From a virus, in IMG/VR virus record IMGVR_UViG_3300025769_000069: DNA of 64,000 nt. One strand, given 5' to 3'. Both the position numbers and the translations under genes were made by a program. The notes below the pieces were generated by a model. The model searched no databases. It was given only the letters and a program-made list of their open reading frames with translations, and had not been told where the DNA came from. Every line of letters begins with the position of its first letter. The first letter of the stretch is position 1. Shown here piece by piece: positions 9,401 through 28,983 of this stretch.

Positions 9401-10041
9401 GTGGTTCAGCTGGCGTAAACTATAACTCATCTACTGGTGCATTTGATGTAGATGAAGCTAACGTAATACATAATAACTTATCAGGCTTTGTAGCTGATGA
9501 GCATATTGCTCACAGTGGTGTATCAATAACAGCCGGTAACGGTCTAACTGGTGGTGGTACAATAGCTGCTAGCAGAACAATTAATGTTGGAGCTGGTACT
9601 GGTGTTACTGTTAATGCTAATGATATTGCGATTGGACAAGATGTTGCTACTTCAGCATCACCTACGTTTGCTGGTGGTACATATACTAGCAATGTTACAT
9701 TCCAAGGTAATATACAATTAGATGAATTTGTAATTAATTCTCAAACTACTACTACCGCAACAGTTTCTCAAACTGCAGTTGCTACATTCTCTGCAACAAC
9801 ATATGGTTCAGCAGAGGCAGTAGTTACAGCAAAAGATGGATCGAATAGACATATAACTAAATTCTTAATAGTACATAATGGAACAAGTGCTTCTCATTCA
9901 GAATATGGTACAGTCTTAACAAATACAAGTTTAGCTACATATGATGTAGATGTAAGTGGAGGAAATGTAAGAATACTAGCAACACCAGCGTCATCAAATA
10001 GCACGGTGTTCAATGTTTCTCTTACATTAATTGATGCATAA
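3466..10041 (+). CDS. Large repeat-rich tail fibre / virion fibre protein
   Basis: 2191 aa, T/S/D/G-rich; about 9 copies of (T/S)T.D(L/V).EG(S/T)NLYYT, duplicated GDLTVNGTTTTINSTT...VNDKNIVLA modules, C-terminal beta domain. Confidence 0.8.
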   Translation: MADRIITTKIKNVKVGRPIRSTVGATITFGGLSDTLITLQAHDDTIIWDSDYARWVNVPSLTLIDSAVSNNSTLQSSIRELISGSGDVQYNSSTGVISLTTTQSNFDSNFNVAIDAAALDGVGLAYDSGTRALSIDSAELASYYRQDIRSYFSADGDLSYNATTGEFSFDVENVYTQANFDSDFNTTLDNAAIDGVGLTYDAENNKLSIDSAELSQYYSTNDITEGSNNLYYTTARSDSDFDVRLATKTTSDVSEGTNLYYTTTRFDSDFAAIFDSNFNIALDGAALNGNGLDYNDFDNTLSIADTLVEAGNYGGVTTSLDLRILSTGQIDSAVARPIAVVQAFTFSDSSRGQFTINTPAGDFTATMGEYVTDEARAALVAGTGVTYDSANGIISIGQAVATSSNVQFNNLTLDGDLTVNGTTTTINSTTISVNDKNIVLADSAVDSAATDGAGITVATSGASITYDHTNATWDLNRPLGRDINVLSEHSTDDVSEGSNLYYTTARANTDFDTRLATKTTGDLTEGSNLYYTRSRFDSDLASDPSVSSIRTYFSTTGDLSYDNSTGVFSFNVEDAYTQENFESDFTQAVDSISTNLIPGADITYDLGSSSRRWRDLYLSGSSINLGNLVITDSSGIFAVKDSAGSVVQIDLATNTTNDLAEGSTNLYYTTARFDSDFGDNTTSDLTEGSNLYYTDDRVNTFLGSGSATTLTTTGNVTVGGDLTVNGTTTTINSTTLSVNDKNIVLADSAADSSAANGAGITVAGANATILYDHANATWDLNRPLGRDINVLSEHSTTDLSEGSNLYYTRARFDSALGDTTSTSTIRGYFSAGGDLSYNSSTGEFSFDVENVYTKANFDSDFNYALDSAALGGTGLTYTASTNTLSITNTGVDSGVYGSASLVPVLTINAQGQIDSAGTVSVAGVSSVTFDSANYNYTISTADGGSYLKNIHTRPTLSNIAGTYGSASAVPIVKVDQFGHVDSISTVSVAGVTNFAYDSAEGRLTISTADGGSYPTVVTLDPFTTTNLSEGSNLYYTTARFDSDFGDNTTSDLTEGSNLYYTTARADSDAKAAISVTDAGGDGSLTYNSGVITYTGPSASEVRAHFTAGTGVSISSGEVSIGQPVATTSDVTFAKITGDSANLDNIKFTTLSTPPSSTFGTMYYDSDEQKGPSITLRTLENTAPGVTLNVGQEILLYVHNLTGAQVNNGDVVYISGTAHGKHPQISLAKADASSTAQPTGVATMDIPDGAHGWVTRYGMVRDLDTSAYTAGDVLYLSKDSDGKLTNTSITVDEGYPVHIARVMTADASAGMILVDPFSEHFEYLRVQDRVKIDGSLQADSAALGQIEFSTSWADSHIGFTEGALWYDPYHKNLNYYTDFDHPIEIGMQVIERVYNETGSTINKGSPLYYSGNRTDIAGQESPTVALANATSSTKYNVQGLAAEDIPNNSYGQIVVAGVIDGFDTSSLNAGENFFVGLTDGAVQNAPPSYPNYPMCLGWVIISDPSNGKVIINQQNHSVNSFRVQGDTHISSNLIVDGNFTVNGTQTIASTENVNIGGNIQYLNAGNTIGEDNTVFVGTGLDDAFYAGHYSGDSSSKSFFVKIDGTGTPDTFEWGFDSSVGTEATGVAITGAEQTLAAGISIDFGATTGHTSGDKWTGTASALNTDTGLFSNKNEGDAGNGYTHIGLYWDASEDEWTFVGQYESEPTAPIDRSAPTFQYGDVRGKDFYGTTFNGALSGNATTATRLQTARNFSLTGDITASAVSFDGTGNIQLTTAYNPNSIVNGDISPTAAIVDTKLATISTAGKVQNGATTATSANTASAIVARDASGNFSAGTITADFDRSANTTVAAGTYGSASLVPVLTIDASGFIDSAGTVSVAGVSSTTWDSDTAIFTINTADGGSYETRTLINSNLVNHDNTTGFVADEHIAHSGVTITAGTGLTGGGTIAASRTLNVVGGNGIIANANDIQIDSANVRGMFSGSAGVNYNSSTGAFDVDEANVIHNNLSGFVADEHIAHSGVSITAGNGLTGGGTIAASRTINVGAGTGVTVNANDIAIGQDVATSASPTFAGGTYTSNVTFQGNIQLDEFVINSQTTTTATVSQTAVATFSATTYGSAEAVVTAKDGSNRHITKFLIVHNGTSASHSEYGTVLTNTSLATYDVDVSGGNVRILATPASSNSTVFNVSLTLIDA
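4708..5890 (+). repeat. Intragenic duplication of a ~90-aa module (about 4708-4980 and 5620-5890)
   Basis: GDLTVNGTTTTINSTT.SVNDKNIVLADSA...ATWDLNRPLGRDINVLSEHST.D.SEGSNLYYT occurs twice. Confidence 0.85.
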
Positions 10042-10074
10042 TAATTTTCCCGGTGGCGAGGAAGGTGTAATTAA

Positions 10075-12297
10075 ATGGTAAAAAAACCATTTATAATAAA
10101 AGATCAGGAACTGAGAGTCGGTAACAATAGAGTTATTGACTCAGATGGGCAATGGGTTGGATCAACAACTGGAATCTCTGGTTATCAAGGAGATACTGGA
10201 GTTAGTGGTGCTCAGGGTAGGCAGGGTGTAGCTGGTATTCTTGGAGTTGCAGGCTTTCAAGGACCGGGTGGAGCAACTGGTGCTGGGGGTGCTCAAGGTG
10301 TCCAAGGTTCTGCTGGATCAGCTGGTCCTCAAGGTTTCCAAGGTCGACAAGGTTTTCAAGGTGTTCAAGGATATACTGGTGTTCAAGGTCCACAGGGACC
10401 TCAAGGATCTACTGGTGCAACTGGTAGACAAGGTGTCGGTGGTGTTCAAGGTGCTGCTGGCCGGCAGGGTGTCCAAGGTGCACAAGGTCCTCAGGGACCA
10501 CAGGGACCACAAGGTTCAAGAGGGCCACAGGGTGGCGCTGGACCCACTGGAGCAACAGGTAGAACTGGTGTTGCCGGTGTTCAAGGTTATCAGGGTGTTC
10601 AAGGCTACCAGGGAACTCAGGGTGCTCGTGGACCACAGGGACCGCAAGGTCCAGTAGGACCAACTGGTGCGACTGGTCGACAAGGTGCTCAGGGTGCTGC
10701 TGGTCGTCAGGGTGTTCAAGGATACCAGGGAACACAGGGTGCTAGAGGACCACAAGGACCGCAGGGTCCGGTAGGACCAACTGGAGCATCTGGTCGTCAA
10801 GGTGGAGTTCCAGGTGCCGGCACAGTAACTTATCAAATATATTCAACTCATGGTGGCAGCGGTAACACTAGTCAATACTCAAATTTTCCTACAAACTCTA
10901 CAAACTTTGATGCGTATTTCAATACAAACTATTCAAACACAACTTTGCACAGCTCTGGTTCAGCTGCAATAACTACAATTTTAAATTGGACAAATTATAC
11001 TACTTTGACTGGTGCTGGAATATCAGTACCAAATTCTGGTAATTATTTTTCTGTAATAGTTTCAGGTACGTTCAGACCTCTTGAAACTGGTACTTACACG
11101 TTTACTGCAGAATCTGATGATGCTATTGACTTGTTTATTAATAATACTAATGTGGCTAGTTTTTATGGCGGAAGAGGTACTCCAGCTTTAGGAACAACTA
11201 CAGGAACCATTTCTTTAACCGCTGGTACTACATATACGTTTAGAGCTCGTACTCAAGAGTATGGTGGTGGCGAAGGTATGAGAGTCTTTTGGAAAAAGCC
11301 ATCAGAATCTGCTGGTTCAACATGGTATCAACACACTGCTGAACTTGGTGTTGCCGGCACAAGAGGACCTCTTGGTTATCAAGGAACTCAGGGTGCTCGT
11401 GGACCACAGGGACCTCAAGGACCGGTAGGACCAAATGGTGCTACTGGCCGACAAGGTGTCGGAGGCGCGCAAGGTCGTCAAGGTGTTCAAGGCTACCAGG
11501 GAACTCAGGGACCACAGGGATCAAGAGGACCACAGGGTTCTAGAGGACCACAGGGAGCAACTGGTAGACAAGGTCATCAGGGTGTTCAGGGTTATCAGGG
11601 TGTTCAGGGTTATCAGGGACCAAGAGGACCGCAAGGCGCTAGAGGACCACAGGGAGCAAGAGGTCCACAGGGTCCTACAGGACCAGCAGGAGCAACTGGT
11701 GTTGGTGGTGCAACTGGTCCTGGTGGACCAGCATCTTACACAGGATATACTGGTAGATCTGGTGTTCAAGGTAAGGCTGGTGCTCAGGGTTATCAGGGTG
11801 CCCAGGGATCTAGAGGACCACAAGGTCCACAAGGAACTTCATCTGCAAGTGGTGGATACAATCCTGCTACTGTTACACATAGCTATCTTTCAGTAAATAT
11901 TGGAGCAGCTTCTCCTACTGGAACAATTCAAGCAACTGGATCTATTACTGCTGGATATTCTGACAAAAGATTAAAACATGAAATTGAAATTATTAAAGAC
12001 GCAGTTGATAAATTAAAGTCTATTACTGGAATTTATTTTAGAACAAATGAAACCGGAAAGAAATTAGGTTTGGATACTGGAAGAAGACAAATTGGCTTGA
12101 TTGCTCAACAAATAGAAGCAATCGCTCCAGAATTAGTAACCAAAGCAGCATTAGCTGAAGAATTAGATAATGGAAATAATTATCTTACTGTAAAGTATGA
12201 TCGAGTAGTTGCTCTATTGTTACAAGCTATAAAAGAACAACAAGCACAAATAAATATATTGAAGCAAAAAGTAGAGCAAAGAGAAGTAAATGGCTAA
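10075..12297 (+). CDS. Collagen-like fibre 1 with inserted PA14-like domain and C-terminal S74 intramolecular chaperone
   Basis: Gly-X-Y at aa ~33-243 and ~425-589; PA14-like [24 protein letters not shown]...[16 protein letters not shown]; S74 motif YSDKRLK...IGLIAQQIE...LTVKY...LLQAIKE. Confidence 0.85.
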
Positions 12298-13963
12298 GAA
12301 ACCCTTTATAGTTCAAGAAGGAGTTACTGTTAATGGCACAGATGTCATTGACAATACCGGAAAGTGGGTTGCTAGCGCTGTTAATATTAGAGGTCCTCAA
12401 GGACCACAGGGTAGACAAGGTGCTCAAGGACCACAGGGTAGATCTGGATTAGATGGATCTCAAGGTCCACAGGGTGCAACCGGAGTTGCTGGGTTCCAAG
12501 GTCGCCAAGGTGCTCAAGGTGCAGTTGGTGCTCAAGGGATACAAGGTCCTCAGGGACCACAAGGACCACAAGGTGCTCGTGGGCCACAAGGTTCTGCTGG
12601 ACCAACAGGTGCAACTGGAGTTGCAGGTGTTCAAGGTTATCAGGGTGTTCAAGGATATACTGGTGTACAAGGTGCACAAGGTGTTCAAGGTTCTGCTGGA
12701 CCAACTGGTGCTGGAGGTAGAACTGGTGTTGGTGGTGTAACAGGTCCAACTAGTGGCGTAACAGGGTTTCAAGGTTATCAGGGTCGACAAGGTACACAAG
12801 GACCGCAAGGTGCTAGAGGACCGCAAGGACCAACCGGTGTTGGCGGGGTCGGTGGATCCACCGGTGCTTCAAGTAGTGTTGCTGGGTATCAAGGTAGACA
12901 GGGTGCAGTTGGTGCTCAAGGAACACAAGGTCCAAGAGGTCCTCAAGGTCCAACTGGTGTTGGAGGAGTAGGCGGGTCCACCGGTGCTTCAAGTAGTGTA
13001 GCAGGTTATCAAGGCAGACAAGGATCAAATGGTGCTCAAGGCGGGACAGGACCACGGGGACCACAAGGTCCAACCGGTGTTGGAGGAGTAGGCGGATCCA
13101 CCGGTGCTTCAAGTAGTGTTGCTGGTGTTCAAGGCTACCAAGGTGTTCAAGGTTATCAGGGAACTCAAGGTGCTAGAGGACCACAGGGATCGACCGGTGC
13201 AACTGGTGTTGGTGGTGTAACAGGTGTTGGTGGTGTAACAGGTACTCAAGGTGTTCAAGGTCCTCAAGGTTCGCGTGGACCACAGGGTTCTAGAGGACCA
13301 CAAGGTTCAACAGGTGTTACTGGTGTTGGTGGTGTTAGTGGTGCAGCAAGTGCTACTACTGGTCCGACAGGTAGAACTGGTTTCCAAGGCGTTCAGGGAT
13401 ATGCTGGTTATCAAGGTGCTAGAGGACCGCAAGGACCACAGGGTGCTCAAGGTTATCAGGGAACTCAAGGTGCTAGAGGACCACAAGGAGGAGGAGGACC
13501 AACTGGTGTGGCTGGTGCTCAGGGTGCTGCTGGAGCAGTTACTAATACTGCTCAAGTATTAGCATTTGGCGTTGGAACTCCAGCTGGACCAACTGGAGAT
13601 CTAAGAGCATCTGGTAACATTGTATCATATTATTCAGATATTAGATTAAAAGATAAAATTGAATATATTAAAGATCCAAATGTAAAAATAAAGAATTTAA
13701 ATGGTGTATTTTATACTCAAAATGAATTTGCTGAAAAATATGGATACCATGATTATAGAACACAAGTTGGATTAATTGCTCAAGAAGTAAATAAAATATT
13801 ACCTGAAGTTATTGAAGATGCTCCTTTTAACTTAAGAGACAATACAGACGATAAATATTTAACAGTGCGTTATGAACACATTGTTCCTTTATTAGTTGAA
13901 GCTATAAAAGAACAACAAGAAGAAATAGAAGAACTATCTAGGGTATTGTTAAATGGCGACTAA
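12290..13963 (+). CDS. Collagen-like fibre 2 with C-terminal S74 chaperone
   Basis: Gly-X-Y aa ~35-417; YSDIRLK...VGLIAQEV...[18 protein letters not shown]. Confidence 0.85.
12820..13160 (+). repeat. Three tandem 120-nt (40-aa) repeats in collagen 2
   Basis: Rows starting 12841, 12961 and 13081 align; each encodes [17 protein letters not shown]. Confidence 0.85.
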
Positions 13964-15635
13964 AAAGTTTGACATAAAAAATGGATTAACTATCAGAGGT
14001 AGTTCAAATATCCCAGTAATTGATAGTGATGGTAATTGGATAGGTCCAACAACTTTAGTTGGTACTGGTCCGCAGGGTGCTCAGGGTGCTGCCGGTCCGC
14101 AAGGTGTTCAAGGAACAAATGGTACACAAGGACCATCTGGTCCGCAGGGTGTTCAAGGTCCTCAAGGTCCTCAGGGACCAGCTGGAAGACAGGGTACAAA
14201 TCCAACAGGAGCAACTGGTGTTGGTGGTAGAACTGGTGTTGGTGGTGTAACAGGTGCAACTAGTGGTGTAGCTGGTTTCCAAGGCCGACAAGGTACACAA
14301 GGACCGCAAGGTGCTAGAGGACCACAAGGTCCACAAGGTGTTCAGGGAGCAGCTGGAGTATCAAATGCAACTGGTTTCCAAGGTCGACAAGGTTATCAAG
14401 GTGTTCAAGGATATACTGGTGTTCAAGGACCACAAGGTCCACAGGGACCTCAAGGATCTACTGGTGCTACTGGCCGACAAGGTGTTGGTGGTCGACAAGG
14501 TGTTCAGGGTGTTCAGGGATATACTGGTTATCAGGGTCCTCAAGGACCGCAAGGACCACAGGGAGCAGCTGGTCGTCAGGGATCAACTGGTGCAACGGGT
14601 GTAGCTGGTAGACAAGGTCATCAGGGTGTTCAGGGATATACTGGTTATCAAGGTACTCAGGGTCCTCAAGGACCACAGGGTCCAGCAGGAGCACAGGGTG
14701 CAGTTGGTGCTCAAGGTGGTTCTGGTCGTCAAGGTCGTCAAGGTGTTCAGGGATATACTGGTTATCAGGGTGCGCAAGGTGCTAGAGGACCACAAGGTGC
14801 TAGAGGACCACAAGGTCCAACCGGTAGAATTGGTGTAACTGGTGTGGCTGGTCGACAAGGTTATCAAGGTGTTCAGGGTTATCAAGGTGTTCAGGGTTAT
14901 CAAGGACCAGCAGGAGCAACTGGTAGAGGTGGTGTTGCTGGCCGTCAAGGTGTTACTGGCCGTCAAGGTGTTCAGGGTTATCAAGGCGTTCAGGGTTATG
15001 GCGGAGCATCTGGTTATCAAGGTACACAAGGACCACAGGGTCCTAGAGGACCGCAAGGGCCGCAAGGAGCAGCGACAGGGACAGGTCCTCAAGGTTCGCG
15101 TGGACCACAGGGTCCAACTGGAGTAACTGGTCCTTCAGGTGTTGCTGGTAGACAAGGTGCTCAAGGTTATCAGGGATACGCCGGCGTAGCTGGAACAACA
15201 ACTCAAGTAGATAAACTATTAGTTGGATCTCCAGCACCAGCATCAACTTCAATGGGAGTTGGAGATATTAGAGCAGCAAGTTATATTACAGCAGGTTACT
15301 CTGATATTAGATTAAAAAATGTAAAAGGGCCAATAGATAATCCTATAAAAAGAATTAGCAAATTAAATGGTTATTATTATTCTCCAAATGAATTAGCAAA
15401 AAATATTGCAAATGACTTTTCTGGACGGAAAATTGGCCTGATTGCTCAAGAATTAGAACAGGCTTTACCTGAAGTACTTAGAGGTGCTCCGTTTGATATA
15501 AATAAGCATGGACATAGTATTTCTGGCGAGAAGTATTTAACAGTGGACTATCCAAGAGTAATTCCTTTATTAATTGAAGCACTAAAGGAACAAAAAAATC
15601 AAATAGATGATTTAAAATCTAGAATAGGAAAATAA
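13953..15635 (+). CDS. Collagen-like fibre 3 with C-terminal S74 chaperone
   Basis: Gly-X-Y aa ~39-416; YSDIRLK...IGLIAQELE...LTVDYPRVIPLLIEALKE. Confidence 0.85.
   Translation: MATKKFDIKNGLTIRGSSNIPVIDSDGNWIGPTTLVGTGPQGAQGAAGPQGVQGTNGTQGPSGPQGVQGPQGPQGPAGRQGTNPTGATGVGGRTGVGGVTGATSGVAGFQGRQGTQGPQGARGPQGPQGVQGAAGVSNATGFQGRQGYQGVQGYTGVQGPQGPQGPQGSTGATGRQGVGGRQGVQGVQGYTGYQGPQGPQGPQGAAGRQGSTGATGVAGRQGHQGVQGYTGYQGTQGPQGPQGPAGAQGAVGAQGGSGRQGRQGVQGYTGYQGAQGARGPQGARGPQGPTGRIGVTGVAGRQGYQGVQGYQGVQGYQGPAGATGRGGVAGRQGVTGRQGVQGYQGVQGYGGASGYQGTQGPQGPRGPQGPQGAATGTGPQGSRGPQGPTGVTGPSGVAGRQGAQGYQGYAGVAGTTTQVDKLLVGSPAPASTSMGVGDIRAASYITAGYSDIRLKNVKGPIDNPIKRISKLNGYYYSPNELAKNIANDFSGRKIGLIAQELEQALPEVLRGAPFDINKHGHSISGEKYLTVDYPRVIPLLIEALKEQKNQIDDLKSRIGK
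15497..15504 (+). promoter_or_regulatory. Candidate internal late promoter for the hydroxylase cluster
   Basis: Exact TATAAATA inside the 3' end of collagen 3, ~135 nt before the next ORF; could be chance in AT-rich DNA. Confidence 0.45.
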
Positions 15636-15639
15636 AGAA

Positions 15640-15894
15640 ATGGCAATAGATCTTTCTACACAAGATATAGAAACACATTCTAAAGAAGGTTTCTTCAATG
15701 AAAACGAAACTGCAGTAGACGCTTCAGTAAATGCTTCTGGATGGTGGAAATTAACTATGGTTGATGGAACATTTACAGCAGCAGCAGCTGCTACTGAAGC
15801 TGAAGATGGTGCAACTGTAAATGAAGCAGCGCAATTAGTATATAATGTGGATGAAACAACTATTCATATGTATGTTAATTTTAACGTAGAATAA
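15640..15894 (+). CDS. Small acidic hypothetical protein
   Basis: 84-aa ORF tightly packed in the operon. Confidence 0.6.
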   Translation: MAIDLSTQDIETHSKEGFFNENETAVDASVNASGWWKLTMVDGTFTAAAAATEAEDGATVNEAAQLVYNVDETTIHMYVNFNVE

Positions 15895-15916
15895 AATTTA
15901 ATTTTTGAGGTGATTT

Positions 15917-16495
15917 ATGGCATGGCAAGGTGATTGGTGTTATTTTGAATCGTATTTAAATAAACAAGACTGTGAAGAAATAATCGCTCAAGCAAAACTA
16001 TTACCATCACAAGATGCAGTAGTTGGTTTGGGTGAAGATGCTCATCTTACGGAATATCGTAAAAGTAAAGTATCATTTATTCAAGCAGGTGATTGGAGAT
16101 TTCAAAAATTATTTGATGCTTTATGGAAAACACAAATTCAAGCAAATAAAGATTTCTTTAATATCCACGTTAATAGACTTGATTTTGTACAATTTGCAGA
16201 ATATGATGCATCTATTCAAGGCGAATATAAAGAGCATGTAGATACTTTTTGGATGAATGGCGATCCAACACATCATAGAAAAATATCATGTGTATTGCAA
16301 TTATCGGATCCAAATGACTATGATGGTGGTGATTTAGAAATTGTAGATTCTTCTAATCCACCAGATCCAAAAGATTACAGAGCTCAAGGAACTTTTATCT
16401 ATTTTCCTTCAGTCTTAAAACACAAAGCAAATCCAGTTACGAGAGGAACTAGATATAGTATTGCTGCGTGGTTTGAAGGCCCTAAATGGATTTAG
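15917..16495 (+). CDS. 2OG-Fe(II) dioxygenase (PKHD/prolyl-hydroxylase-like)
   Basis: HVD...RKISCVLQLS...YDGGDL...HKANPVTRGTRYSIAAW. Confidence 0.85.
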   Translation: MAWQGDWCYFESYLNKQDCEEIIAQAKLLPSQDAVVGLGEDAHLTEYRKSKVSFIQAGDWRFQKLFDALWKTQIQANKDFFNIHVNRLDFVQFAEYDASIQGEYKEHVDTFWMNGDPTHHRKISCVLQLSDPNDYDGGDLEIVDSSNPPDPKDYRAQGTFIYFPSVLKHKANPVTRGTRYSIAAWFEGPKWI

Positions 16496-17220
16496 CGCAA
16501 GCAAAAGAGTATGATGTTCCTTTTAAATACTTCGTGATAGACAATTTTTTAAAAGCTGATTTAGCACATACTTTATCAAAACAGTTCCCTTCACATTCTT
16601 CTAAAAAATGGTTTGCTTATGACAATCCATTAGAAAGAAAAAAGGCTATTCAAAACTGGGGATCTTTTCCACCGGAAACTTATCAGTTATTTTTATCATT
16701 ATGTTGCGAAAAGTTTACTGATAAATTAAGAAAGCTAACCGGGGATGCATGTCTTAAGCCTGATTATGGATTACATGGTGCTGGTTGGCATATGAGCAAA
16801 AGTGGAGATCATTTAAATATTCATCAAGATTATTCTATTCATCCACTAGCTAATATGCAAAGGAAATGGAACATTATAATCTATCTTACTCCAAACTGGA
16901 AAAAAGAATGGGGTGGAAATTTAGAATTTTGGAGCCATAATGAAGAATTAAATCAAGCAAAGAAAAAAGAAGTATCTATTGATTGTGTATTTAATAGAGC
17001 TGTTTTGTTTGATACCACTCAAAATTCATGGCATGGATTTCCAGAAACAATTAAATGTCCTCAAGGAATATACCGAAAAAGCATTGCAATGTATTATTTG
17101 TCGCCAATACAAGAGAGTGCTGTTGATAGACCTAGAGCATTATATAGTCCACGAGAAGATCAAATAAATAACGATAAGATCCTTGAATTTATTAAGAAAC
17201 GTGCTGAGAAAACATCATGA
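16486..17220 (+). CDS. 2OG-Fe(II) dioxygenase (Tpa1/OGFOD1-like proline hydroxylase family)
   Basis: HQD...IIYLTPNW..EWGGNLEFW...FNRAVLF...WHG...RKSIAMYY. Confidence 0.85.
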   Translation: MDLAQAKEYDVPFKYFVIDNFLKADLAHTLSKQFPSHSSKKWFAYDNPLERKKAIQNWGSFPPETYQLFLSLCCEKFTDKLRKLTGDACLKPDYGLHGAGWHMSKSGDHLNIHQDYSIHPLANMQRKWNIIIYLTPNWKKEWGGNLEFWSHNEELNQAKKKEVSIDCVFNRAVLFDTTQNSWHGFPETIKCPQGIYRKSIAMYYLSPIQESAVDRPRALYSPREDQINNDKILEFIKKRAEKTS

Positions 17221-18944
17221 ATAAAGAATGTAAAATTGTTATGGTAGCCATGTTTAAGAACGAAGCACATGTTCTTCGAAACATGCTTGATTCTGTAGTT
17301 GGATATATTGATTATTATGTAATTCAAGATAATGGATCTACAGATGGTTCTCCTGATATTGTAAATGAATGGGCTGCTGAGAATAATATTCCAGGTGTTC
17401 TTTATAAAGTTGAAGAAGGCTGGAAAGGATTTGGCTGGAATAGAGATCATTTAATTCGTTATTGCCAAAATGAAGTCGATCATGGTTGTGATTGGATTCT
17501 TAAAATGGATTGCGATGAAACATTAGAAGTTTATGATGATTTTGATTGGTCCGTATTTAATGATAAAACAGTTCATGGATTTAATATTCCAGCAATTTCT
17601 GGTTCAGCTGTATATTATAGAACATGGTTATGGAATGCAAATATGCAATGGGCGTTTAACCACGATCCATGCCATGAAACCATTTATTGTTTAGATCCAG
17701 AAATTGACCATGAATATAATACTTATCCGCTTCAAATAGGGTTTAATCAAATTGGATCAAATTCTGGAATGTCTTGGTCAGTTCCAACTAAATTTATTTC
17801 AGATTCTCTTGTACTTGAAGAAAAACTTATTCGTGAGCAAAATCTTTTAGAAAATATGTATCACTTTTGGTATATTGGTAAAAGCTATAGAGATGCAATG
17901 GAATCATCTGCATTTCCATTAGAAAAAAGACATGCTGATGAATATGCTAGACGATCAATTTGGTATTTAAATGAATATATTACTAAAGTTTTTAAAGATA
18001 AAAATGGTAATGTAGGTGTGGATGAGATGTGCTATATGGCTGGCATCATGGCAGCTGAAGCATATATTTTTATGGGTAAAAATGAAGAAGCTATTACTAC
18101 ATTAAAACCATTAGAAAGATTTGCTCCTGGAAGAAACGATCATCTATGGATGCTAGTAAAATTATATAAAGAAACAAAACAATATGATAAAATGCTAGAA
18201 ACAACAACAGTGATGATGGATCCGGATCGCAAGTTTCCATTTCCTCAATACTGCAATTTTATTGATCGGCAGCATTATGTTGATGGAACCGGGGATGTAC
18301 AAAGGTTACATGGTGAAGCTTTACAATTAGTAGAATGGCATTCAACTGAAGAAAAAGAATCTAATAATATATTTTCAATTAATAAGATTCCAACAAAAAG
18401 AGTTTGGGTTGTAGATAATTTTTATGAAAATCCTTATGAAATTAGAGATTGGGCTCTTAATAATCTAACCTTTGAAGACGGATCTGAGTGGTACAAAGGA
18501 TATAGATCTTTAGAAAAATATAGACCAATAGAACTTAAACATAAATTTGAAAATATTATTGGAGAGAAAATTGTAGATTGGGAAGGTGGTATGAATGGAG
18601 TTTTCCAAGTAACTCGTGCTTCTGACCCACAAGTTTGGCATTTTGATGAACAGCGTTGGGCTGGTATGATTTACTTATCACCTGATGCACCATATGAGAG
18701 CGGAACTAGGCTTCATATTTCAAAGATAAATAATGCTAGACATAGTATAGAAGATGCTGATATTATCGACGGCGCATTTAATGGAAACTTTTTTGATTCA
18801 ACTAAGTTTCATAATGTTGATATAGTCGGCAACATTTTTAATCGCCTTGCTATCTTCGATGCAAGACATATCCATTCTGCTGGAGAGTATTTTGGATCTG
18901 ATTTAGAAGATGGTAGACTTACACACTTATTCTTTTTTGACTAA
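17217..18944 (+). CDS. GT2 glycosyltransferase (SunS/flagellin-GT-like) + TPR-like helices + C-terminal 2OG-Fe(II) dioxygenase-like domain
   Basis: MFKNEA...DNGSTDG...WILKMDCDE...HE at N-terminus; WYIGKSY helical region; C-terminal VVDNFYENP...HFD...WAGMIYL...FNRL..FD...HSA...GRL. Confidence 0.75.
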   Translation: MNKECKIVMVAMFKNEAHVLRNMLDSVVGYIDYYVIQDNGSTDGSPDIVNEWAAENNIPGVLYKVEEGWKGFGWNRDHLIRYCQNEVDHGCDWILKMDCDETLEVYDDFDWSVFNDKTVHGFNIPAISGSAVYYRTWLWNANMQWAFNHDPCHETIYCLDPEIDHEYNTYPLQIGFNQIGSNSGMSWSVPTKFISDSLVLEEKLIREQNLLENMYHFWYIGKSYRDAMESSAFPLEKRHADEYARRSIWYLNEYITKVFKDKNGNVGVDEMCYMAGIMAAEAYIFMGKNEEAITTLKPLERFAPGRNDHLWMLVKLYKETKQYDKMLETTTVMMDPDRKFPFPQYCNFIDRQHYVDGTGDVQRLHGEALQLVEWHSTEEKESNNIFSINKIPTKRVWVVDNFYENPYEIRDWALNNLTFEDGSEWYKGYRSLEKYRPIELKHKFENIIGEKIVDWEGGMNGVFQVTRASDPQVWHFDEQRWAGMIYLSPDAPYESGTRLHISKINNARHSIEDADIIDGAFNGNFFDSTKFHNVDIVGNIFNRLAIFDARHIHSAGEYFGSDLEDGRLTHLFFFD

Positions 18945-18946
18945 AC

Positions 18947-19678
18947 ATGATAAACAATCAAATCCTTTCAGTACTAGACACATCGATTGCCTCTTATAGA
19001 GAAGCATACCCCTTTCCTCATACCATATTAGATAATTTCTTAGATCCTTGGATCCTAAAACAAGCTATACCTGAAATAGAAAACTATCAACACTGGAGAC
19101 AAGATAACACAGAATGGGTAGAAGACTATCAAATTTTAAAACAATACGCTCCTGATGTGGTAGCAGTTCCAGATGATGTGGAAATCTTAGGTAAGTATGC
19201 TCCAAAAACAAAACTTATTTTAGATTATATGTATTCTGAAACAGTAATAAACTTTCTTCAAGATTTAACTGGTATTCAAGGATTATTACCCGATGAAAAC
19301 TGGTTAGGCGCAGGAATACATAAAATTTCAAGAGGTGGGAAGTTAGGTATCCATGCAGATTTTAATGTAAATTTTGTTAACAACCTTCATCGTAGAATTA
19401 ATGTTTTGATTTATTTAAATGAAGATTGGAATCCAGAATGGAATGGACACCTTGAATTATGGGATAAAGATTTATCAAAATGTTGTGTTAAAGTAGAACC
19501 TATTTTTAATAGAGCAGTAATATTTAATATCACAGACGACGCATTTCATGGACATCCAGAGCCTCTCCAGTGTCCTGAAACTGTATCCAGATATTCACTT
19601 GCATTATACTATTATACGCAAGATAGACCAGAAGAAGAAAAATCAGATCCACATGCGGTTATTTGGTACGACACGTAA
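18947..19678 (+). CDS. 2OG-Fe(II) dioxygenase (Tpa1/OGFOD1-like), paralogue of 16486
   Basis: PFPH.ILDNFL...HAD...RRINVLIYLN..W...W.GHLELW...FHGHP...RYSLALYYY. Confidence 0.85.
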   Translation: MINNQILSVLDTSIASYREAYPFPHTILDNFLDPWILKQAIPEIENYQHWRQDNTEWVEDYQILKQYAPDVVAVPDDVEILGKYAPKTKLILDYMYSETVINFLQDLTGIQGLLPDENWLGAGIHKISRGGKLGIHADFNVNFVNNLHRRINVLIYLNEDWNPEWNGHLELWDKDLSKCCVKVEPIFNRAVIFNITDDAFHGHPEPLQCPETVSRYSLALYYYTQDRPEEEKSDPHAVIWYDT

Positions 19679-19685
19679 TTTAGTG

Positions 19686-19714
19686 GTTTACATTCCAGAA
19701 AAACAGTATATAAT
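19686..19714 (+). promoter_or_regulatory. T4 early-type sigma70 promoter
   Basis: GTTTAC-17 nt-TATAAT in intergenic gap. Confidence 0.75.
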
Positions 19715-19749
19715 AAAAGTATAGACTTTTCAAACCAGGATAGTATATT

Positions 19750-21012
19750 ATGAAATTTAGTATTATTACACCTGAACATGATCCAGGAAATATTCCTTTT
19801 CTTTTAGAATTATTTGATTGTGTTCTTAATCAAACATACAAAGATTGGGAATGGATTTTATATTTAAATAATAAAATTCAAGTTGAGCATATTCCGGATC
19901 AAATTAAAAATCATCCTCAAGTAATTGTATTTAGGACTCATGATACTGATACAAATATTGGTGCAATCAAAAACGCAGCATTTAGTATTGGCACTGGCGA
20001 TGTTTTAGTAGAAGTAGATCATGATGATTTAATTACTCCAGATTGTTTGGAAGAATTAAAAAAAGCATATGAATCTGATCCAGAAGTTGGATTCGTATAC
20101 AGTGATAATGCTGTATTACAAATGGAAGGCGAGTTTATTCCATATGATTCATCCGGCGGCTGGACATGGCGTGAATTTGAATGGAAAGGCCAGACTTTGC
20201 CAGCAATGCATAGTTTTGAACCAACCGCTCAAGCTTTAAGCTACATATGGTATGCTCCAGACCATGTTCGTTCTTGGAGAAAAGAAGTCTATATTGAAGT
20301 TGGTGGACATAATCCCGAGCTTTCTATTTGCGATGACCATGAACTTATGATGCGCACATATCTCATTACTAAAATGAAACGTGTACCAAAAGTCCTTTAC
20401 ATTTACAGAATTACTGGTAATAATACATGGTTAGAGCGTAATGAAGCAATTCAAGTAAAAACTGTAGATCTATTTAGAGAATATGGCCAAAGGCTAGCAG
20501 AAAGAGATGCTCAGCATCGAGGATTATTATGTGTAGATATTGGTGGAGGTTTAAATCCATATCCTGGTTATCATACTGTAGATATTCGTGAAACAGCAGA
20601 TACAGTAGCTGATTTAAATAATGGAATCCCATTACCTGATAATAGTGTTGGTGTGTTAAATGCAAGTCATATATTAGAACACTTAGAAGATAAAACAAAA
20701 ATCATGGGTGAAATTCATAGAGTATTAGCTCATGGTGGTTGGGCCTTTATTGAAGTTCCAAGTACAGATGGACGAGGAGCATTTCAAGATCCAACACATG
20801 TAAGTTATTGGAATGAAAATAGCTTCTTATATTATACAGATAAATACTTAGGAGATTTTATAGATAATGATTCAATTCGTTTTCAAGAATTTCGTAAAGA
20901 AACATATTATCCAAATGAATGGATGCAAAATTTACAAGTGTTGGTCACAACCGCATGGCTAACAGCAGTAAAACAAGATGAACCGCGATACCCGCATGTT
21001 TTGAATATTTAA
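19750..21012 (+). CDS. GT2 glycosyltransferase fused to SAM-dependent methyltransferase-like domain
   Basis: FSIITP...EVDHDD...VGFVYSD...DDHEL (GT-A); DIGGG...ASHILEHL...IHRVLAHGG (class I MTase). Confidence 0.8.
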   Translation: MKFSIITPEHDPGNIPFLLELFDCVLNQTYKDWEWILYLNNKIQVEHIPDQIKNHPQVIVFRTHDTDTNIGAIKNAAFSIGTGDVLVEVDHDDLITPDCLEELKKAYESDPEVGFVYSDNAVLQMEGEFIPYDSSGGWTWREFEWKGQTLPAMHSFEPTAQALSYIWYAPDHVRSWRKEVYIEVGGHNPELSICDDHELMMRTYLITKMKRVPKVLYIYRITGNNTWLERNEAIQVKTVDLFREYGQRLAERDAQHRGLLCVDIGGGLNPYPGYHTVDIRETADTVADLNNGIPLPDNSVGVLNASHILEHLEDKTKIMGEIHRVLAHGGWAFIEVPSTDGRGAFQDPTHVSYWNENSFLYYTDKYLGDFIDNDSIRFQEFRKETYYPNEWMQNLQVLVTTAWLTAVKQDEPRYPHVLNI

Positions 21013-21023
21013 AAGGTGAATGA

Positions 21024-22046
21024 ATGAAAAGAATTTTAATTACTGGTGGTGCTGGTTTTATTGCCCATCATCTAATTGGTCAAGTACTTAAAAGAACTGA
21101 TTGGGAAATTGTTACTCTAGATCGTCTAGATTATAGTGGTAACTTAAACCGCTTGCACGATTTATTGCAAGATTATACTCCAGCAGAACGTAAAAGAGTT
21201 CGCACAATTTACCACGATTTTAAAGCTGAAATTAACCCAATGCTTAAATCTGACATTGGTAAAATTGACATCGTTGCTCATTTAGCCGCTGGTTCTCATG
21301 TTGATAGATCCATTGAGAGACCAATGGAATTTGTTATGGATAATGTTGTTGGCACATGTAATGTATTGGAATTTGCCAAACAGCAAGATAATTTAGAACG
21401 CTTTTTATATTTCTCAACTGATGAAGTATTTGGGCCCGCCCCTGATGGAATTAAATATGATGAGTATGATCGTTATAATTGTACTAATCCATATTCCGCA
21501 TCAAAAGCTGGTGGTGAAGAACTAGCAGTCGCTTATCAAAATACTTATAGCATGCCTATATACATTACACACACAATGAATGTATTTGGACAAAGACAAC
21601 ATCCAGAAAAGTTTATTCCTCTTTGTATTAAAAAAGCGAGAGATGGAGAAACAGTAACAATTCACAGTGATGCATCTAAAACTATACCAGGATCGCGCCA
21701 TTATATTCACGCAGAAGATGTAGCTGATGCTACTTTATTCTTACTAGAAAATAAGAATACTTTAGATATGACAAACAACTCTGGCATTAAATGCCCTAAG
21801 TTTAACATCTGTGGAGCTACAGAAATAAATAACCTAGAATTAGCACAAATGATTGCTGATGCTCAAGGAAAGGAATTATATTATGAATTTATGGATTTCC
21901 ATTCTAGCCGTCCTGGCCATGATCTTCGTTATGCTCTTAGTGGGGATCGTATGGCGCGGATGGGTTGGAGTCCAAAAAGAGTTGAACGAAGAATTGAAGA
22001 AGTTGTGCGATGGACTTTAGAAAATGATAGATGGTTAATGATTTAA
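21024..22046 (+). CDS. NAD-dependent epimerase/dehydratase (dTDP-glucose 4,6-dehydratase/RmlB-like)
   Basis: ITGGAGFI, HLAAGSHVDRSI, STDEVFG, PYSASK, RPGHDLRYAL. Confidence 0.9.
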   Translation: MKRILITGGAGFIAHHLIGQVLKRTDWEIVTLDRLDYSGNLNRLHDLLQDYTPAERKRVRTIYHDFKAEINPMLKSDIGKIDIVAHLAAGSHVDRSIERPMEFVMDNVVGTCNVLEFAKQQDNLERFLYFSTDEVFGPAPDGIKYDEYDRYNCTNPYSASKAGGEELAVAYQNTYSMPIYITHTMNVFGQRQHPEKFIPLCIKKARDGETVTIHSDASKTIPGSRHYIHAEDVADATLFLLENKNTLDMTNNSGIKCPKFNICGATEINNLELAQMIADAQGKELYYEFMDFHSSRPGHDLRYALSGDRMARMGWSPKRVERRIEEVVRWTLENDRWLMI

Positions 22047-22058
22047 AGGAATAAGATA

Positions 22059-23468
22059 ATGTTGAATTTAGGAAAACTACCAGCATCAGTTGAACAACAA
22101 CGGATGACACACAAAGAAAATATTGAGAAACAATCGGCAACAAGCGCGCCACTAGAAGCGCGATCAGAACGTCAAGTTCAAGGTGCGCTGACTCCAAAAG
22201 AAATTTTTGAACGACATGGAATGTGTGTAATTACAGAAGTTGTTAATGAAGAAGAATGTAAAAAACTTTCAAAGCACATGTTCGATTTATTTGAACAAGG
22301 AAAATTAAGTAAAGATCCTCAGTGCCCTCTTTCTGATTCAATATATGGTGATCCAATTTGGGATAAGATGCTAGAAGATTTTGCAAAACCAATCGGAGAA
22401 TATATTGGTTATGAACTTCTTCCAACATACACATATGCTAGAATTTATAGAAAAGGTGAAGAATTAAAAATTCATAAAGATCGTCCTTCATGCGAAATCA
22501 GCGCTACGATGACGATTGATTTCGCTGATTATCCAATTTGGCCAATTCATATGGGCAGTGAACGTAATGTCATCATAGATAGAGGTGATATGATTGTTTA
22601 TAAAGGATGCGAATTGGATCACTGGAGAGATCCATTTAAAGGCGAATGGCAAGTTCAAGTATTTTTCCATTATGTTGATGCAAATGGACCCCATAAAGAT
22701 CTGCATAAAGATGGAAGAAATAATTTAGGTGAAAAGAAAGAAAATCCGGCAGAAAGACCTGAACCTGATATTTTCAAAGATTTAAGAGGATATGCTAATC
22801 AGCAGCTTATGACATTTGGAAATCTTCATCATAACGGTTTTACTGTTTTAAATTCTCATGATTATGATGTTCCTGGTTATATGGGAATTGAGCCAGATGA
22901 AACAAATCATGATTTTACACTTACACCTGAAGATTGTAAACTTTTAATAGATGAAATTGTTAATAAACAATATGCTGTAGATGCCGGCGTTGGATCCAAT
23001 ATGACGGGTTCTTCAGTTACAAAAGAAATTAGAAGTTGTAAAATATATGCTATTCCAAAAGACGAAAGATTTATTCATATCTATAACAAAATTATTTCTT
23101 CGGTTTCTATAGCAAATAAGTTTTATTATGACTTCGAATTAACTGGATTCTTAGGAGAACTTCAATTACTAGAATATAAACATGATGAAAACTCTAGCGT
23201 TCCAGATCATTATAATTGGCATGCTGATTGTGGCCCTGGTGAATCTGCAACTAGAAAACTATCCGTAGTTGTACAATTAACAGATCCTTCAGAGTATGAA
23301 GGGTGCGAACTTGTTATAAATAACAATGGAATGGAACTGGAAGCTTCCAAAAAGCAAGGGACAATTAATATGTTTCCAAGCTACTCTATACACACAGTGA
23401 AACCTATAACAAAAGGAACAAGACATTGTATAGTTGTTTGGATTCATGGAAACAAACGTTTTAGATAA
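22059..23468 (+). CDS. Tandem two-domain 2OG-Fe(II) dioxygenase
   Basis: Domain 1 HKDRPSCE...HWR...QVFFHY; domain 2 WHAD...RKLSVVVQL...HTVKPITKGTRHCIVVW. Confidence 0.8.
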   Translation: MLNLGKLPASVEQQRMTHKENIEKQSATSAPLEARSERQVQGALTPKEIFERHGMCVITEVVNEEECKKLSKHMFDLFEQGKLSKDPQCPLSDSIYGDPIWDKMLEDFAKPIGEYIGYELLPTYTYARIYRKGEELKIHKDRPSCEISATMTIDFADYPIWPIHMGSERNVIIDRGDMIVYKGCELDHWRDPFKGEWQVQVFFHYVDANGPHKDLHKDGRNNLGEKKENPAERPEPDIFKDLRGYANQQLMTFGNLHHNGFTVLNSHDYDVPGYMGIEPDETNHDFTLTPEDCKLLIDEIVNKQYAVDAGVGSNMTGSSVTKEIRSCKIYAIPKDERFIHIYNKIISSVSIANKFYYDFELTGFLGELQLLEYKHDENSSVPDHYNWHADCGPGESATRKLSVVVQLTDPSEYEGCELVINNNGMELEASKKQGTINMFPSYSIHTVKPITKGTRHCIVVWIHGNKRFR

Positions 23469-23482
23469 ATGAAGGGTTTATA

Positions 23483-24439
23483 ATGGCAAAGAAAGCGAAA
23501 AATGAACTGGCAGAAGCGACAACTCCTGCAATGACAATAATTGATAAAGTAGATCAATTTTTGGCATCTAAAGATTATGACAATTTCACCGTACCATTAG
23601 ATGAAGTAATTGGTGGAAAATTTTTAGAAAATCAAGAAAGCTTTGGAGGAAAAACTTTAGCTGAAAATGCTGTAATATGTCAACAAACAATGGACATTGC
23701 ATCTGATCTTCATGAGATTTGGAATCATGGCCATACTCAATTTGCATGGAAACATATTAATTTTTCAGCGCTTGATGACGTTATTAATATGAGACAAATA
23801 TCTGCAGAACTTAGTAACAAAGCAAGTATCTTAAATGGTGCTAAATGGGGCGCTATTGAAACTCAAGTTAAAATTGCTGAATTAGAGTGGAGGCTATCTC
23901 AACTTGATGAAACAAAAAATGAAATGCACAGATTTAAAAAAATGAAAATTATCATGTCTTTGGCTCAAATGAGAGAAAGTGCTGAGGAAAACAAAAGAAT
24001 GCTAGAAGGCACTATGAAAGATATGATTGCTCTAAAAGATTCATATGATCAATTAAATCAAAGGGTTTCGGATATTAGTGAATATGATGTTGAAAAAAAT
24101 CAACCATACCAGCACATGGTGAAATCAATTAATCAGTGTATAAGAGACGTAAGACAATATGGTATGATTTCTAAAGGTGAGCAAGAGTATGCTGAACAAA
24201 TTGGAATAAACCCATCAAAATTGTTAATGGCAATTAAAAATTATTTAGAAAAAGAAGCTATATCAGAATCATGGGACACCAGAGAGCTTAAAATATTTGT
24301 CACTTCATTAGCAAAAGAATTGGCAGAAAATCTTAAAGTTAGTGAAATTAGATCTGAAATGGCCGGATTTAGAGATGAACCAATCGAAGGAGCTTCTTCA
24401 ATTAAAAAAGTAGCACGTTTAGAAAAATCTGAGGAGTAA
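23483..24439 (+). CDS. Coiled-coil hypothetical protein
   Basis: 318-aa helical ORF with SD, in operon. Confidence 0.65.
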   Translation: MAKKAKNELAEATTPAMTIIDKVDQFLASKDYDNFTVPLDEVIGGKFLENQESFGGKTLAENAVICQQTMDIASDLHEIWNHGHTQFAWKHINFSALDDVINMRQISAELSNKASILNGAKWGAIETQVKIAELEWRLSQLDETKNEMHRFKKMKIIMSLAQMRESAEENKRMLEGTMKDMIALKDSYDQLNQRVSDISEYDVEKNQPYQHMVKSINQCIRDVRQYGMISKGEQEYAEQIGINPSKLLMAIKNYLEKEAISESWDTRELKIFVTSLAKELAENLKVSEIRSEMAGFRDEPIEGASSIKKVARLEKSEE

Positions 24440-24443
24440 ACAA

Positions 24444-24836
24444 ATGGGTCGTTTAGTGGAATATAGAAATCATAGGAATCCATTAGATAAATCTCCTATT
24501 GAGCCGGGATTTATTTCACTTGGCGGTTTAGATCATAATGATTCAGATATGACTTATGTTGGATGGATTAGTGAAATTTTTCTCACTGAAACCTATGTTC
24601 CAGATGGTATTGTATTTTTAGATAGCGCATCATACATTGCTAGATCACTGCAATTAAAGGAAAGTATGCCTAGTGCTTTCATATTCCTTGATAGCGCCGA
24701 TCAGCCTTGGGGATATGACGCAGATGGTTATCCACTAAAGATGAGTGATGATTCATGCGCAGCTGTTGCAATTGAAACTTATAATCATTATGTTTCAACT
24801 TATACTCAAATGGAAGCAGAAGGAACTCTTAGATAA
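24444..24836 (+). CDS. Hypothetical protein
   Basis: 130-aa ORF, SD GAGGAG, stop overlaps next start. Confidence 0.6.
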   Translation: MGRLVEYRNHRNPLDKSPIEPGFISLGGLDHNDSDMTYVGWISEIFLTETYVPDGIVFLDSASYIARSLQLKESMPSAFIFLDSADQPWGYDADGYPLKMSDDSCAAVAIETYNHYVSTYTQMEAEGTLR

Positions 24837-26308: not shown

Positions 26309-26322
26309 TATGAGGAAAAATA

Positions 26323-27615: not shown

Positions 27616-27623
27616 AGAATAAA

Positions 27624-28946: not shown

Positions 28947-28954
28947 TATAAATA
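28947..28954 (+). promoter_or_regulatory. T4-type late promoter
   Basis: TATAAATA upstream of gp13. Confidence 0.85.
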
Positions 28955-28983
28955 GAATAAAAACATATTAAGGTTTTTCATCG

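Follow-up and report, generated by a model that had tools for sequence, protein, structure and literature searches.

Collagen-like tail fibres of an uncultured T4-like aquatic myophage and a neighbouring block of putative fibre-tailoring enzymes

Why would a phage encode, directly behind its collagen-like tail fibres, a compact series of 2-oxoglutarate (2OG) oxygenases, glycosyltransferases (GTs) and a sugar-nucleotide dehydratase-like enzyme? This question is raised by IMG/VR virus record IMGVR_UViG_3300025769_000069, a stretch of 64,000 nucleotides (the whole of which is called the window hereafter). Tailoring of collagen by hydroxylases and glycosyltransferases is textbook knowledge in animals, has been shown for mimivirus and is only predicted in bacteria. 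A preliminary description of the locus had proposed that the phage hydroxylates, and then glycosylates and methylates, its own fibres. Judging from gene neighbourhoods and predicted folds, we lean towards the view that the phage does tailor its own collagen fibres by hydroxylation followed by glycosylation and methylation, and the gene arrangement suggests that the locus very probably forms a functional unit with these fibres. The tailoring chemistry, however, is not that of animal collagen. The order that had been described, three collagen genes (10075-15635) and then the enzymes (15917-23468), all co-directional and tightly packed, was confirmed as follows.

10075..12297, + strand: collagen chain 1, 740 aa (Collagen, E 2e-49; PA14, E 2.5e-11; Peptidase_S74, E 6e-12)
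12290..13963, + strand: collagen chain 2, 557 aa (Pfam Collagen, E 9e-39; S74, E 8e-10)
13953..15635, + strand: collagen chain 3, 560 aa (Pfam Collagen, E 6e-49; S74, E 1.5e-8)
15917..16495, + strand: ox1, 2OG oxygenase with a single domain, prolyl-4-hydroxylase/PHD structural group (PF13640, E 4e-16)
16486..17220, + strand: ox2, OGFOD1/PHD-like 2OG oxygenase, 244 aa (PF13640/PF13661)
17217..18944, + strand: gt_ox, a SunS-like GT2 joined to a helical, TPR-like region and to a DUF6445 oxygenase (Pfam GT2, DUF6445)
18947..19678, + strand: ox4, OGFOD1/PHD-like paralogue of ox2 (29% identity), 243 aa (PF13640, E 9e-18)
19750..21012, + strand: gt_mt, GT2 fused to a class I S-adenosylmethionine (SAM) methyltransferase (Pfam GT2, Methyltransf_11)
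21024..22046, + strand: NAD-dependent sugar-nucleotide 4,6-dehydratase-like short-chain dehydrogenase/reductase (SDR; Pfam Epimerase, GDP_Man_Dehyd)
22059..23468, + strand: ox56, two 2OG-oxygenase domains (phrog_2954, residues 50-221; phrog_61, residues 261-466)

By their domain content, the three collagen-like genes, which overlap one another by 8 and 11 nt, encode tail-fibre chains in which a short conserved N-terminus is followed by a Gly-X-Y helix and then by a self-cleaving S74 chaperone; the C-terminal PF13884 domain of the S74 intramolecular-chaperone fibres is present in all three. Chain 1 consists of an N-terminal peptide, two Gly-X-Y blocks with PA14 between them and the S74 chaperone at the C-terminus, and it also matches PHROG tail-fibre families, while the C-terminus of chain 3 resembles the S74 fibres of other phages. 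The PA14 domain, which is of the carbohydrate-binding type (11035-11301, residues 321-409), interrupts the triple-helix region in chain 1 only.

The enzyme genes are separated by -10 to +71 nt and lie, all in the same direction, within the late structural block. Six 2OG-Fe(II) dioxygenase domains with intact HxD...H iron ligands had been reported here, two of them OGFOD1-like, and both statements held: all six are present in the genes listed above with their ligands conserved in alignments, and a profile of ox2, ox4 and their homologues matches human OGFOD1 (E 3.7e-15). In ox1, the ligands H107/D109/H169/R179 are invariant in an alignment of 33 sequences. The AlphaFold2 (AF2) model of this protein (predicted local distance difference test, pLDDT, 87) was set against 48,161 PDB chains with no pre-filtering, and its top eight matches were all protein prolyl hydroxylases with Z scores of 19.0-15.4 (Pseudomonas PPHD, Trichoplax PHD, the chlorovirus collagen hydroxylase PBCV-1 vCPH, Dictyostelium PhyA, CrP4H, PHD2, P4H-TM and OGFOD1, in that order), the first non-prolyl enzymes appearing only at about Z 14.6. 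The match of the ox2/ox4 profile to OGFOD1 (PDB 4nhx) covers positions 9-207 of 244 and is followed by matches to PHDs and to one prolyl 4-hydroxylase (P4H). H113/D115/H183/R197 are invariant among the 24 sequences of the ox2 alignment, ox4 included, and ox4 matches a HIF prolyl hydroxylase in the PDB by sequence (E 4e-5). The two-domain architecture of OGFOD1/Tpa1 (about 550 aa, with a second, non-catalytic double-stranded beta-helix, DSBH) is not shared by ox2 and ox4, which are single-domain proteins. As for ox56, its N-terminal domain belongs to a PHROG type labelled 'ferrochelatase' and keeps HKD...H in five of six relatives, and its C-terminal domain is ox1-like, residues 395-463 matching PiuC/PKHD in the PDB. 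The known prolyl 4-hydroxylases (PBCV-1 vCPH, Chlamydomonas P4H-1, B. anthracis P4H, PHD2, OGFOD1/Tpa1 and PPHD) share the HxD...H...R pattern with the window's enzymes at a sequence identity of just 16-21%. The predicted folds of the oxygenases resemble those of protein-modifying prolyl hydroxylases, which speaks for a common structure and not for an activity.

Two GT2 domains had also been described, and Pfam places them at the N-termini of the genes at 17217-18944 and 19750-21012. In the AF2 model of gt_ox (pLDDT 80), residues 2-317, which include the Pfam GT2 domain at residues 13-103, superimpose on SunS/ThuS at Z 19.6, 18.8 and 18.7 over 273-294 residues, the next GT2s reaching only about 14, and this part has the SunS-like make-up of a GT-A fold with DxD followed by helical repeats. 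Its sequence profile matches TPR and GmaR, the flagellin O-GlcNAc transferase (GmaR, E 3.8e-5). SunS/ThuS, which are glycocin S-glycosyltransferases, and GmaR have the same combination of GT2 and TPR-like helical substrate-binding region, but only gt_ox is fused to a 2OG oxygenase. This oxygenase part (residues 392-575, DUF6445/DSBH) matches OGFOD1/PHD/PPHD folds at Z of about 13 (up to 13.6), and H475/D477/H553/R567 as well as the DxD (D98/D100) are invariant in 22 sequences. In fold comparison, the whole of gt_ox recalls AspH, LH3 and P3H1, in which an oxygenase is joined to a TPR or GT domain. Of the enzymes in the module, gt_mt is the most highly conserved, with 60-91% identity among phage relatives; in the window it lies 4.1 kb past the end of the last collagen gene within a single gene block. 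Across the alignments of 22-33 homologues, neither the DxD of the two GT2s nor the Gly-rich SAM motif of gt_mt varies.

The RmlB-like dehydratase of the preliminary description was likewise present. TIGR01181 is indeed the best model (E 7e-73), but the score of 245.5 bits lies below the cut-off of 365.1, and since this is the equivalog cut-off the enzyme is called RmlB-like and nothing more specific. Its translation contains GGAGFIA (the GxxGxxG NAD site), YSASK (YxxxK) and STDEV (TDE). No enzyme of the block scored above its cut-off in the NCBIfam scan.

We propose that the seven genes from 15917 to 23468 would act as a fibre-tailoring module produced alongside the fibres. The prolyl-hydroxylase-type oxygenases (ox1, ox2, ox4, the DUF6445 end of gt_ox and both domains of ox56) would hydroxylate residues of the chains, and the SunS-like GT2-TPR part of gt_ox would attach the first sugar to the protein. 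A further sugar could then be added and methylated by gt_mt, which might alternatively cap the chain, and the RmlB-like dehydratase would provide a 6-deoxyhexose precursor. The collagens as the substrate, the residue that is modified, the order of the steps and the sugars used are all inferred.

The pairing of collagens and enzymes is not peculiar to the window. An alignment search of IMG/VR with ox1 gave 260 relatives, the best 80 of which (49-85% identity) were examined. One fragment (L003) is a near-identical partial copy of the window, with 97-100% protein identity from ox56 through gp15, and a more distantly related locus (L001/L004) has the same gene order; between the window and L001, the enzyme proteins are 78-92% identical, with the exception of ox56 (61%), and the collagens 54-55%. 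A near-identity DNA search of the cultured-phage collection found no relative of the locus, the single match (74%) being to the SDR gene only. Synteny of collagens and enzymes across phages had been put forward as a check, and the pairing recurs in most of the IMG/VR relatives examined: nearly all of the best 80 have the same layout of a large fibre, one to four collagen genes, ox1, ox2, gt_ox, gt_mt and gp13-15. Where at least 600 nt were visible upstream of ox1, an open reading frame (ORF) with a collagen run ended within 1.5 kb upstream of it in 58 of 69 loci (40 of 50 when only non-redundant loci were counted). The remaining 11 of the 69 comprise three with a collagen ORF within 10 kb, two with an S74 fibre fragment and six with none, and four of these six have less than 3 kb of visible upstream sequence. 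In a reduced variant, ox1 is accompanied by a free-standing DUF6445 protein of 184 aa and shorter collagen runs, and in a minimal variant ox1 stands alone behind a large fibre with a collagen run of 42-63 aa. The pairing also occurs away from gp13: ox1 follows collagen-bearing proteins in L087 and L100 and lies near collagen proteins of 960-1430 aa in L067 and L099, and in L016 a DUF6445-TPR protein is encoded immediately 5′ of a collagen protein of 1430 aa. Giant collagen proteins, 1430-2058 aa long, were seen on viral contigs with DUF6445 or ox1 homologues, namely at 55.7-58.5 kb of G005 (IMGVR_UViG_3300020445_001720), L016:4171-8463 and L099:3-4295.

Support that is independent of the window's phage clade came from bacteria. 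At least 328 full-length bacterial relatives of gt_mt were found, and among the best 80 (L144-L223; 36-48% identity) a collagen ORF lies within 3 kb of the GT2-methyltransferase homologue in 64, collagen runs being at background level more than 4 kb away from it. These 80 loci come from Streptomyces and other Actinomycetota, Planctomycetota, Thiothrix, beta- and deltaproteobacteria and Mucilaginibacter, and their surroundings are chromosomal (DnaE, DsbD) and not those of a phage. Nine of the partner proteins were tested, and all matched Pfam Collagen (E 1e-18 to 1e-152). Additional genes in the 80 loci are DUF6445 in 7, GT2-TPR in 6, SDR in 16 and ox1-like in 2; the bacterial DUF6445 proteins are 33-42% identical to the C-terminus of gt_ox and the SDR homologues are 31-34% identical to that of the window. 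For example, Streptomyces sp. NBC_01384 (L185) has separate GT2-TPR, GT2-methyltransferase, SDR, collagen and DUF6445 genes within 12 kb. From its gene content, the pairing of GT2-methyltransferase and Gln-rich collagen in bacteria of many phyla looks like an undescribed cellular cassette. Another bacterial locus with a GT2-methyltransferase and a collagen-like gene is that of Thiothrix eikelboomii ATCC 49788 (L161).

A second line of support independent of the window's clade is given by loci of the type found in the cultured cyanophages S-CAM9 (NC_031922, L029:2537-11393) and S-PRM1 (L030). Here, a fibre of 1830 aa with S74 and a 177-aa collagen run, rich in Gly-X-Lys, is followed by two 2OG oxygenases, one of them 44% identical to ox1. 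The third enzyme of S-CAM9 (L029:9552-11393, 613 aa) combines GT25 and PLOD-GT (PF01755 and PF25342; PLOD-GT, E 7.5e-47) with a C-terminal oxygenase, so that, by its domains, the set looks like the one with which animals hydroxylate and glycosylate lysine. Relatives of the PLOD-GT fusion were found at 21 viral loci, and every full-length one with DNA upstream has a collagen fibre in which Lys occurs in 18-54% of the triplets. In the window's clade, there is no PLOD-like gene and Lys occurs in 0.1-1.4% of the triplets. The PLOD-like enzyme thus goes with Lys-rich collagens and both are lacking in the window's clade, in other words the enzyme that is present fits the residue on offer. Altogether, the link to collagen is strongest for gt_mt, followed by ox1, and weakest for ox4, the SDR and ox56.

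Which residues could be modified? In the 356 triplets of the window's collagens, Y is Gln in 54% and Thr in 17%, X is Pro in 26%, and acidic residues are nearly absent. In the bacterial partner collagens, Y is likewise Gln (60%) or Thr (17%) and X is highly variable. Neither the X-Pro-Gly context of collagen P4H nor the Lys at Y of LH3 is found in the window's collagens. The candidate targets are therefore Pro at X for the P4H-like enzymes, Thr at Y for direct O-glycosylation as in BclA, and Gln at Y, the most plausible target of hydroxylation being the X-position Pro in Gly-Pro-Gln/Thr. Bacillus BclA, with its rhamnose genes, and C. difficile BclA3, with the adjacent glycosyltransferase SgtA, are glycosylated collagen-like proteins. 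The window resembles these systems in having a collagen-like fibre with Thr at Y beside GT and deoxy-sugar genes, and it differs from them in its GT2-methyltransferase and GT2-TPR-oxygenase fusions, its 2OG oxygenases, the lack of a complete rml pathway and the prevalence of Gln rather than Thr at Y. Possible further substrates are encoded at 24836-28946 by three adjacent genes for Pro-rich proteins (430-490 aa, each starting with MPI, 10-13% Pro and rich in Thr/Ser/Gly/Tyr). This Pro-rich trio was found only in the window, in L003 and, at 29-54% identity, in L001/L002.

A number of observations weigh against the tailoring of the phage's own collagens. As Pro is never found at Y (0% of the 356 triplets) and Lys makes up only 0.3%, the canonical targets of collagen P4H and lysyl hydroxylase are missing; the proposal made in the preliminary description is supported by the link between enzymes and collagens (in the phage clade, the S-CAM9 lineage and bacteria) and by the protein-modifying folds, while the animal-style chemistry that it implied does not fit. 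Some of the bacterial partners (L150, L179 and L212) have almost pure Gly-X-Gln collagens without Pro or Thr, and genes of the hydroxylase type accompany the bacterial pair of collagen and GT2-methyltransferase in only 9 of the 80 loci. Shared ancestry of the related phages also accounts for much of the neighbourhood pattern. In raw counts, the full enzyme set occurs with collagens of 504-1563 aa and reduced sets with 42-465 aa, but full and reduced sets form essentially two clades of the ox1 tree with one deep split, and a scaling of the enzyme set with collagen length was dropped after this tree left one to three independent contrasts and no significance. Furthermore, no collagen gene is present in the complete genomes of HTVC008M, Melnitz, S-SSM7 and Sf-FS3, each of which contains 3-11 PF13640 matches. 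HTVC008M (L114:14403-17682) has five genes of the 2OG-oxygenase type, encoded on the opposite strand, between its S74 fibres, which lack collagen, and gp13, and in S-SSM7 and Sf-FS3 the oxygenases flank an S74 fibre without collagen. Collagen therefore does not account for the majority of phage 2OG oxygenases, and the suggestion that this locus would provide the missing substrate of orphan 2OG oxygenases in marine T4-like phages could be kept for a subset only. Finally, gt_ox and gt_mt occur on viral fragments among genes for RNR, PstS, porin, sulfotransferase and MazG and without a visible collagen gene (ox2 and the SDR being additionally present on L010/L011), although these fragments are only 12-34% complete. 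Two larger contigs, on which ox1 or DUF6445 stands in a different context, do have collagen genes, 12-29 kb off.

These observations bear on what else the enzymes might act upon. It is rather unlikely, in our judgement, that they tailor virion proteins other than, or beyond, the triple helix, be it S74 fibres generally, the 2191-aa fibre protein encoded upstream of the collagens or the Pro-rich trio. Prolyl hydroxylases of plants and chloroviruses do act on Ser/Thr/Ala-Pro-rich substrates that the trio resembles, and the combination of ox4, the SDR and ox56 is confined to the lineage that has the trio (the window with L003, and L001/L002); however, this co-occurrence amounts to a single lineage event, and in L050, L069 and L070, where the trio is missing, an ox56-like gene, ox4 or the SDR is present. 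Likewise, the S74 fibres flanked by oxygenases in S-SSM7, Sf-FS3 and HTVC008M, and the minimal relatives in which ox1 follows a large fibre with a mere 42-63 aa of collagen, would suit a broader substrate, but ox1 adjoins a collagen-bearing gene in 58 of 69 loci and the GT2-methyltransferase is tied to collagen genes in bacteria that have no such fibres.

Improbable, too, is a host-directed accessory island within a hypervariable host-recognition cluster, in which the GTs and the SDR would remodel host lipopolysaccharide (LPS), capsule or surface glycans against superinfection and the oxygenases would act on host metabolites or proteins (2OG/nitrogen status, ribosomal or EF-Tu prolyl hydroxylation, secondary metabolites). 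Host-directed roles are the published reading of the GTs and oxygenases of pelagimyophages and cyanophages (PMC7029224, PMC3037559, PMC2938197), and they would be in keeping with the gt_ox/gt_mt modules amid genes of the auxiliary metabolic gene (AMG) type on fragments L005-L011, with the collagen-free phages that have many 2OG genes and with the presence of EF-Tu and ribosomal-protein prolyl hydroxylases among the nearest solved relatives of ox1 and ox2. They do not account for a position fixed right behind the collagen genes in dozens of divergent relatives, for the pairing of GT2-methyltransferase and collagen-like genes on bacterial chromosomes, for the joining of a peptide-GT fold with TPR to a protein-hydroxylase fold in gt_ox, or for the PLOD-like enzyme that goes with Lys-rich collagens in the sister system. 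A modification of phage DNA, by base oxidation of the TET/JBP or AlkB kind with subsequent glycosylation and methylation, appears very improbable. Phage systems of 5-methylpyrimidine dioxygenases and GTs exist (bioRxiv 10.1101/2023.12.21.572611), AlkB-family chains occur lower in the fold list of ox1 (Z 13) and some PHROG labels contain the words 'DNA endonuclease'; yet the best fold and profile matches are to protein prolyl hydroxylases and not to TET/JBP/AlkB, the genes lie within the late structural block, and collagens are their neighbours in phages and bacteria alike.

If the enzymes do tailor the collagen fibres, several known systems offer a comparison. The bifunctional lysyl hydroxylase/glucosyltransferase L230 of mimivirus and the animal LH3/PLOD3 and COLGALT (GT25) likewise bring together collagen, 2OG hydroxylase and GT, in part as fusions; LH3 and the mimivirus lysyl hydroxylase appear among our fold matches, and gt_ox has GT and 2OG hydroxylase in one polypeptide as they do. 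Unlike them, the window has GTs of the GT2 type only (Pfam) and neither PLOD-GT (PF25342) nor GT25, its oxygenase domains are P4H/PHD/OGFOD1-like and its collagens are essentially without Lys. Bacterial dioxygenases and sulfotransferases have been predicted to modify co-encoded collagen-like/tail-collar proteins by Iyer, Abhiman, de Souza and Aravind (2010; PMC2938197), who ascribed the dioxygenase arrays of cyanophages to the synthesis of secondary metabolites and not to fibres. Their operons follow the same logic, with a dioxygenase beside a glycine-rich collagen-like protein and hydroxylation before the addition of a second group, but they contain dioxygenases of the beta-hydroxylase/PhyH type and sulfotransferases. 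For such oxygenases, Sullivan et al. (2010; PMC3037559) considered roles in 2OG/nitrogen stress or DNA repair, and a survey of AMGs found that the purpose of viral P4H 'remains cryptic'. The 'host recognition cluster' of pelagimyophages, composed of fibres, collagen repeats and glycosyltransferases, was described by Zaragoza-Solas et al. (2020; PMC7029224), who proposed modification of the host O-antigen; it belongs to the same kind of phage and the same genome region, but the GTs and oxygenases were not linked to the collagen fibres there. Our literature search found no published proposal of fibre tailoring by such a cassette.

The source of the collagen-like fibre genes is an uncultured T4-like aquatic myophage. 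Its structural and replication genes lie on the + strand and include gp13, gp14, gp15, terminase, sheath, portal, scaffold and major capsid protein, as well as a UvsW-type helicase, gp46/47, DNA polymerase and gp41. The major capsid protein is 66% identical to that of phage C48C1, 64% to that of Methylophilales phage Melnitz and 62% to that of Pelagibacter phage HTVC008M, the marine cyanomyoviruses being at about 58-60%. The following features adjoin the collagen and enzyme genes.

3466..10041, + strand: fibre protein of 2191 aa, rich in Thr/Ser, immediately 5′ of the collagen genes
15497..15504, + strand: TATAAATA, T4-type late-promoter-like motif, a candidate only, 136 nt upstream of the 84-aa ORF
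15640..15894, + strand: 84-aa ORF between fibres and enzymes, no family match
23483..28946, + strand: five genes between the enzymes and gp13, no family match
28984..29736, + strand: gp13-type neck protein, downstream limit of the fibre/enzyme block (phrog_211, E 8e-42)

The 2191-aa fibre has no Pfam match and no G-X-Y run, and its homologues are located ahead of the collagen genes in most of the related loci, as gp13 is found after the enzyme block in most of them. The 84-aa ORF has a counterpart (52% identity) at the same position in L001 and is missing from most other relatives. Neither this ORF nor the Pro-rich trio nor the ORFs of 318 and 130 aa matched a family in the libraries scanned, Pfam, PHROG and NCBIfam among them.

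All 13 copies of TATAAATA in the window are on the + strand (for example at 28947, 33646, 35888 and 41751), and several of them lie 26-53 nt 5′ of gp13, gp18 (sheath), gp20 (portal) and other gene starts, a placement typical of late promoters of the T4 type. However, 13 copies against 9.7 expected is no excess over chance, and for this reason the site at 15497..15504 is regarded as a mere candidate. Scans of 9600-29500 for sigma-70 promoters and terminators gave no more sites than in shuffled sequences. A near-consensus sigma-70-like promoter (TTTACA-16-TATAAT, 11/12) was seen at 19687-19714, immediately 5′ of gt_mt in the sole sizeable gap of the enzyme block, such sites being at chance level overall. 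The G+C content is 45-48% in the collagen genes (10001-16000) against 32-36% in the enzyme genes (16001-24000), a contrast that is probably a codon effect of the Gly/Pro/Gln/Arg-rich repeats and not a sign of foreign origin.

More tentatively, it is possible, though we would rather doubt it, that phages have in common with many bacterial phyla a so far unrecognised cassette for the tailoring of Gly-X-Gln-rich collagen-like proteins, a cassette which would install a modification chemically distinct from the hydroxyproline and hydroxylysine glycosides of animals. Such a cassette would consist of the GT2-methyltransferase and, optionally, the GT2-TPR, the DUF6445 oxygenase, a P4H-like oxygenase and the deoxy-sugar SDR, and its chemistry might be hydroxylation of X-position Pro, or a modification of Y-position Gln, followed by a methylated glycan. 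Among the residues of the partner collagens, only Gln at Y is shared by all of them. In these phages, the cassette would tune the stability of the fibres or host recognition.

The T4-like phages of marine and fresh waters have many orphan 2OG oxygenases and GTs, which are now explained by the sensing of nitrogen stress, by DNA repair, by secondary metabolism or by changes of host LPS, and a protein substrate encoded next door would make at least part of this orphan enzyme set testable. The bacterial pairs of GT2-methyltransferase and collagen give systems that can be cultured (Streptomyces, Thiothrix eikelboomii). Biomaterials work, which takes prokaryotic collagens to be unmodified, would likewise have an interest in modified ones.

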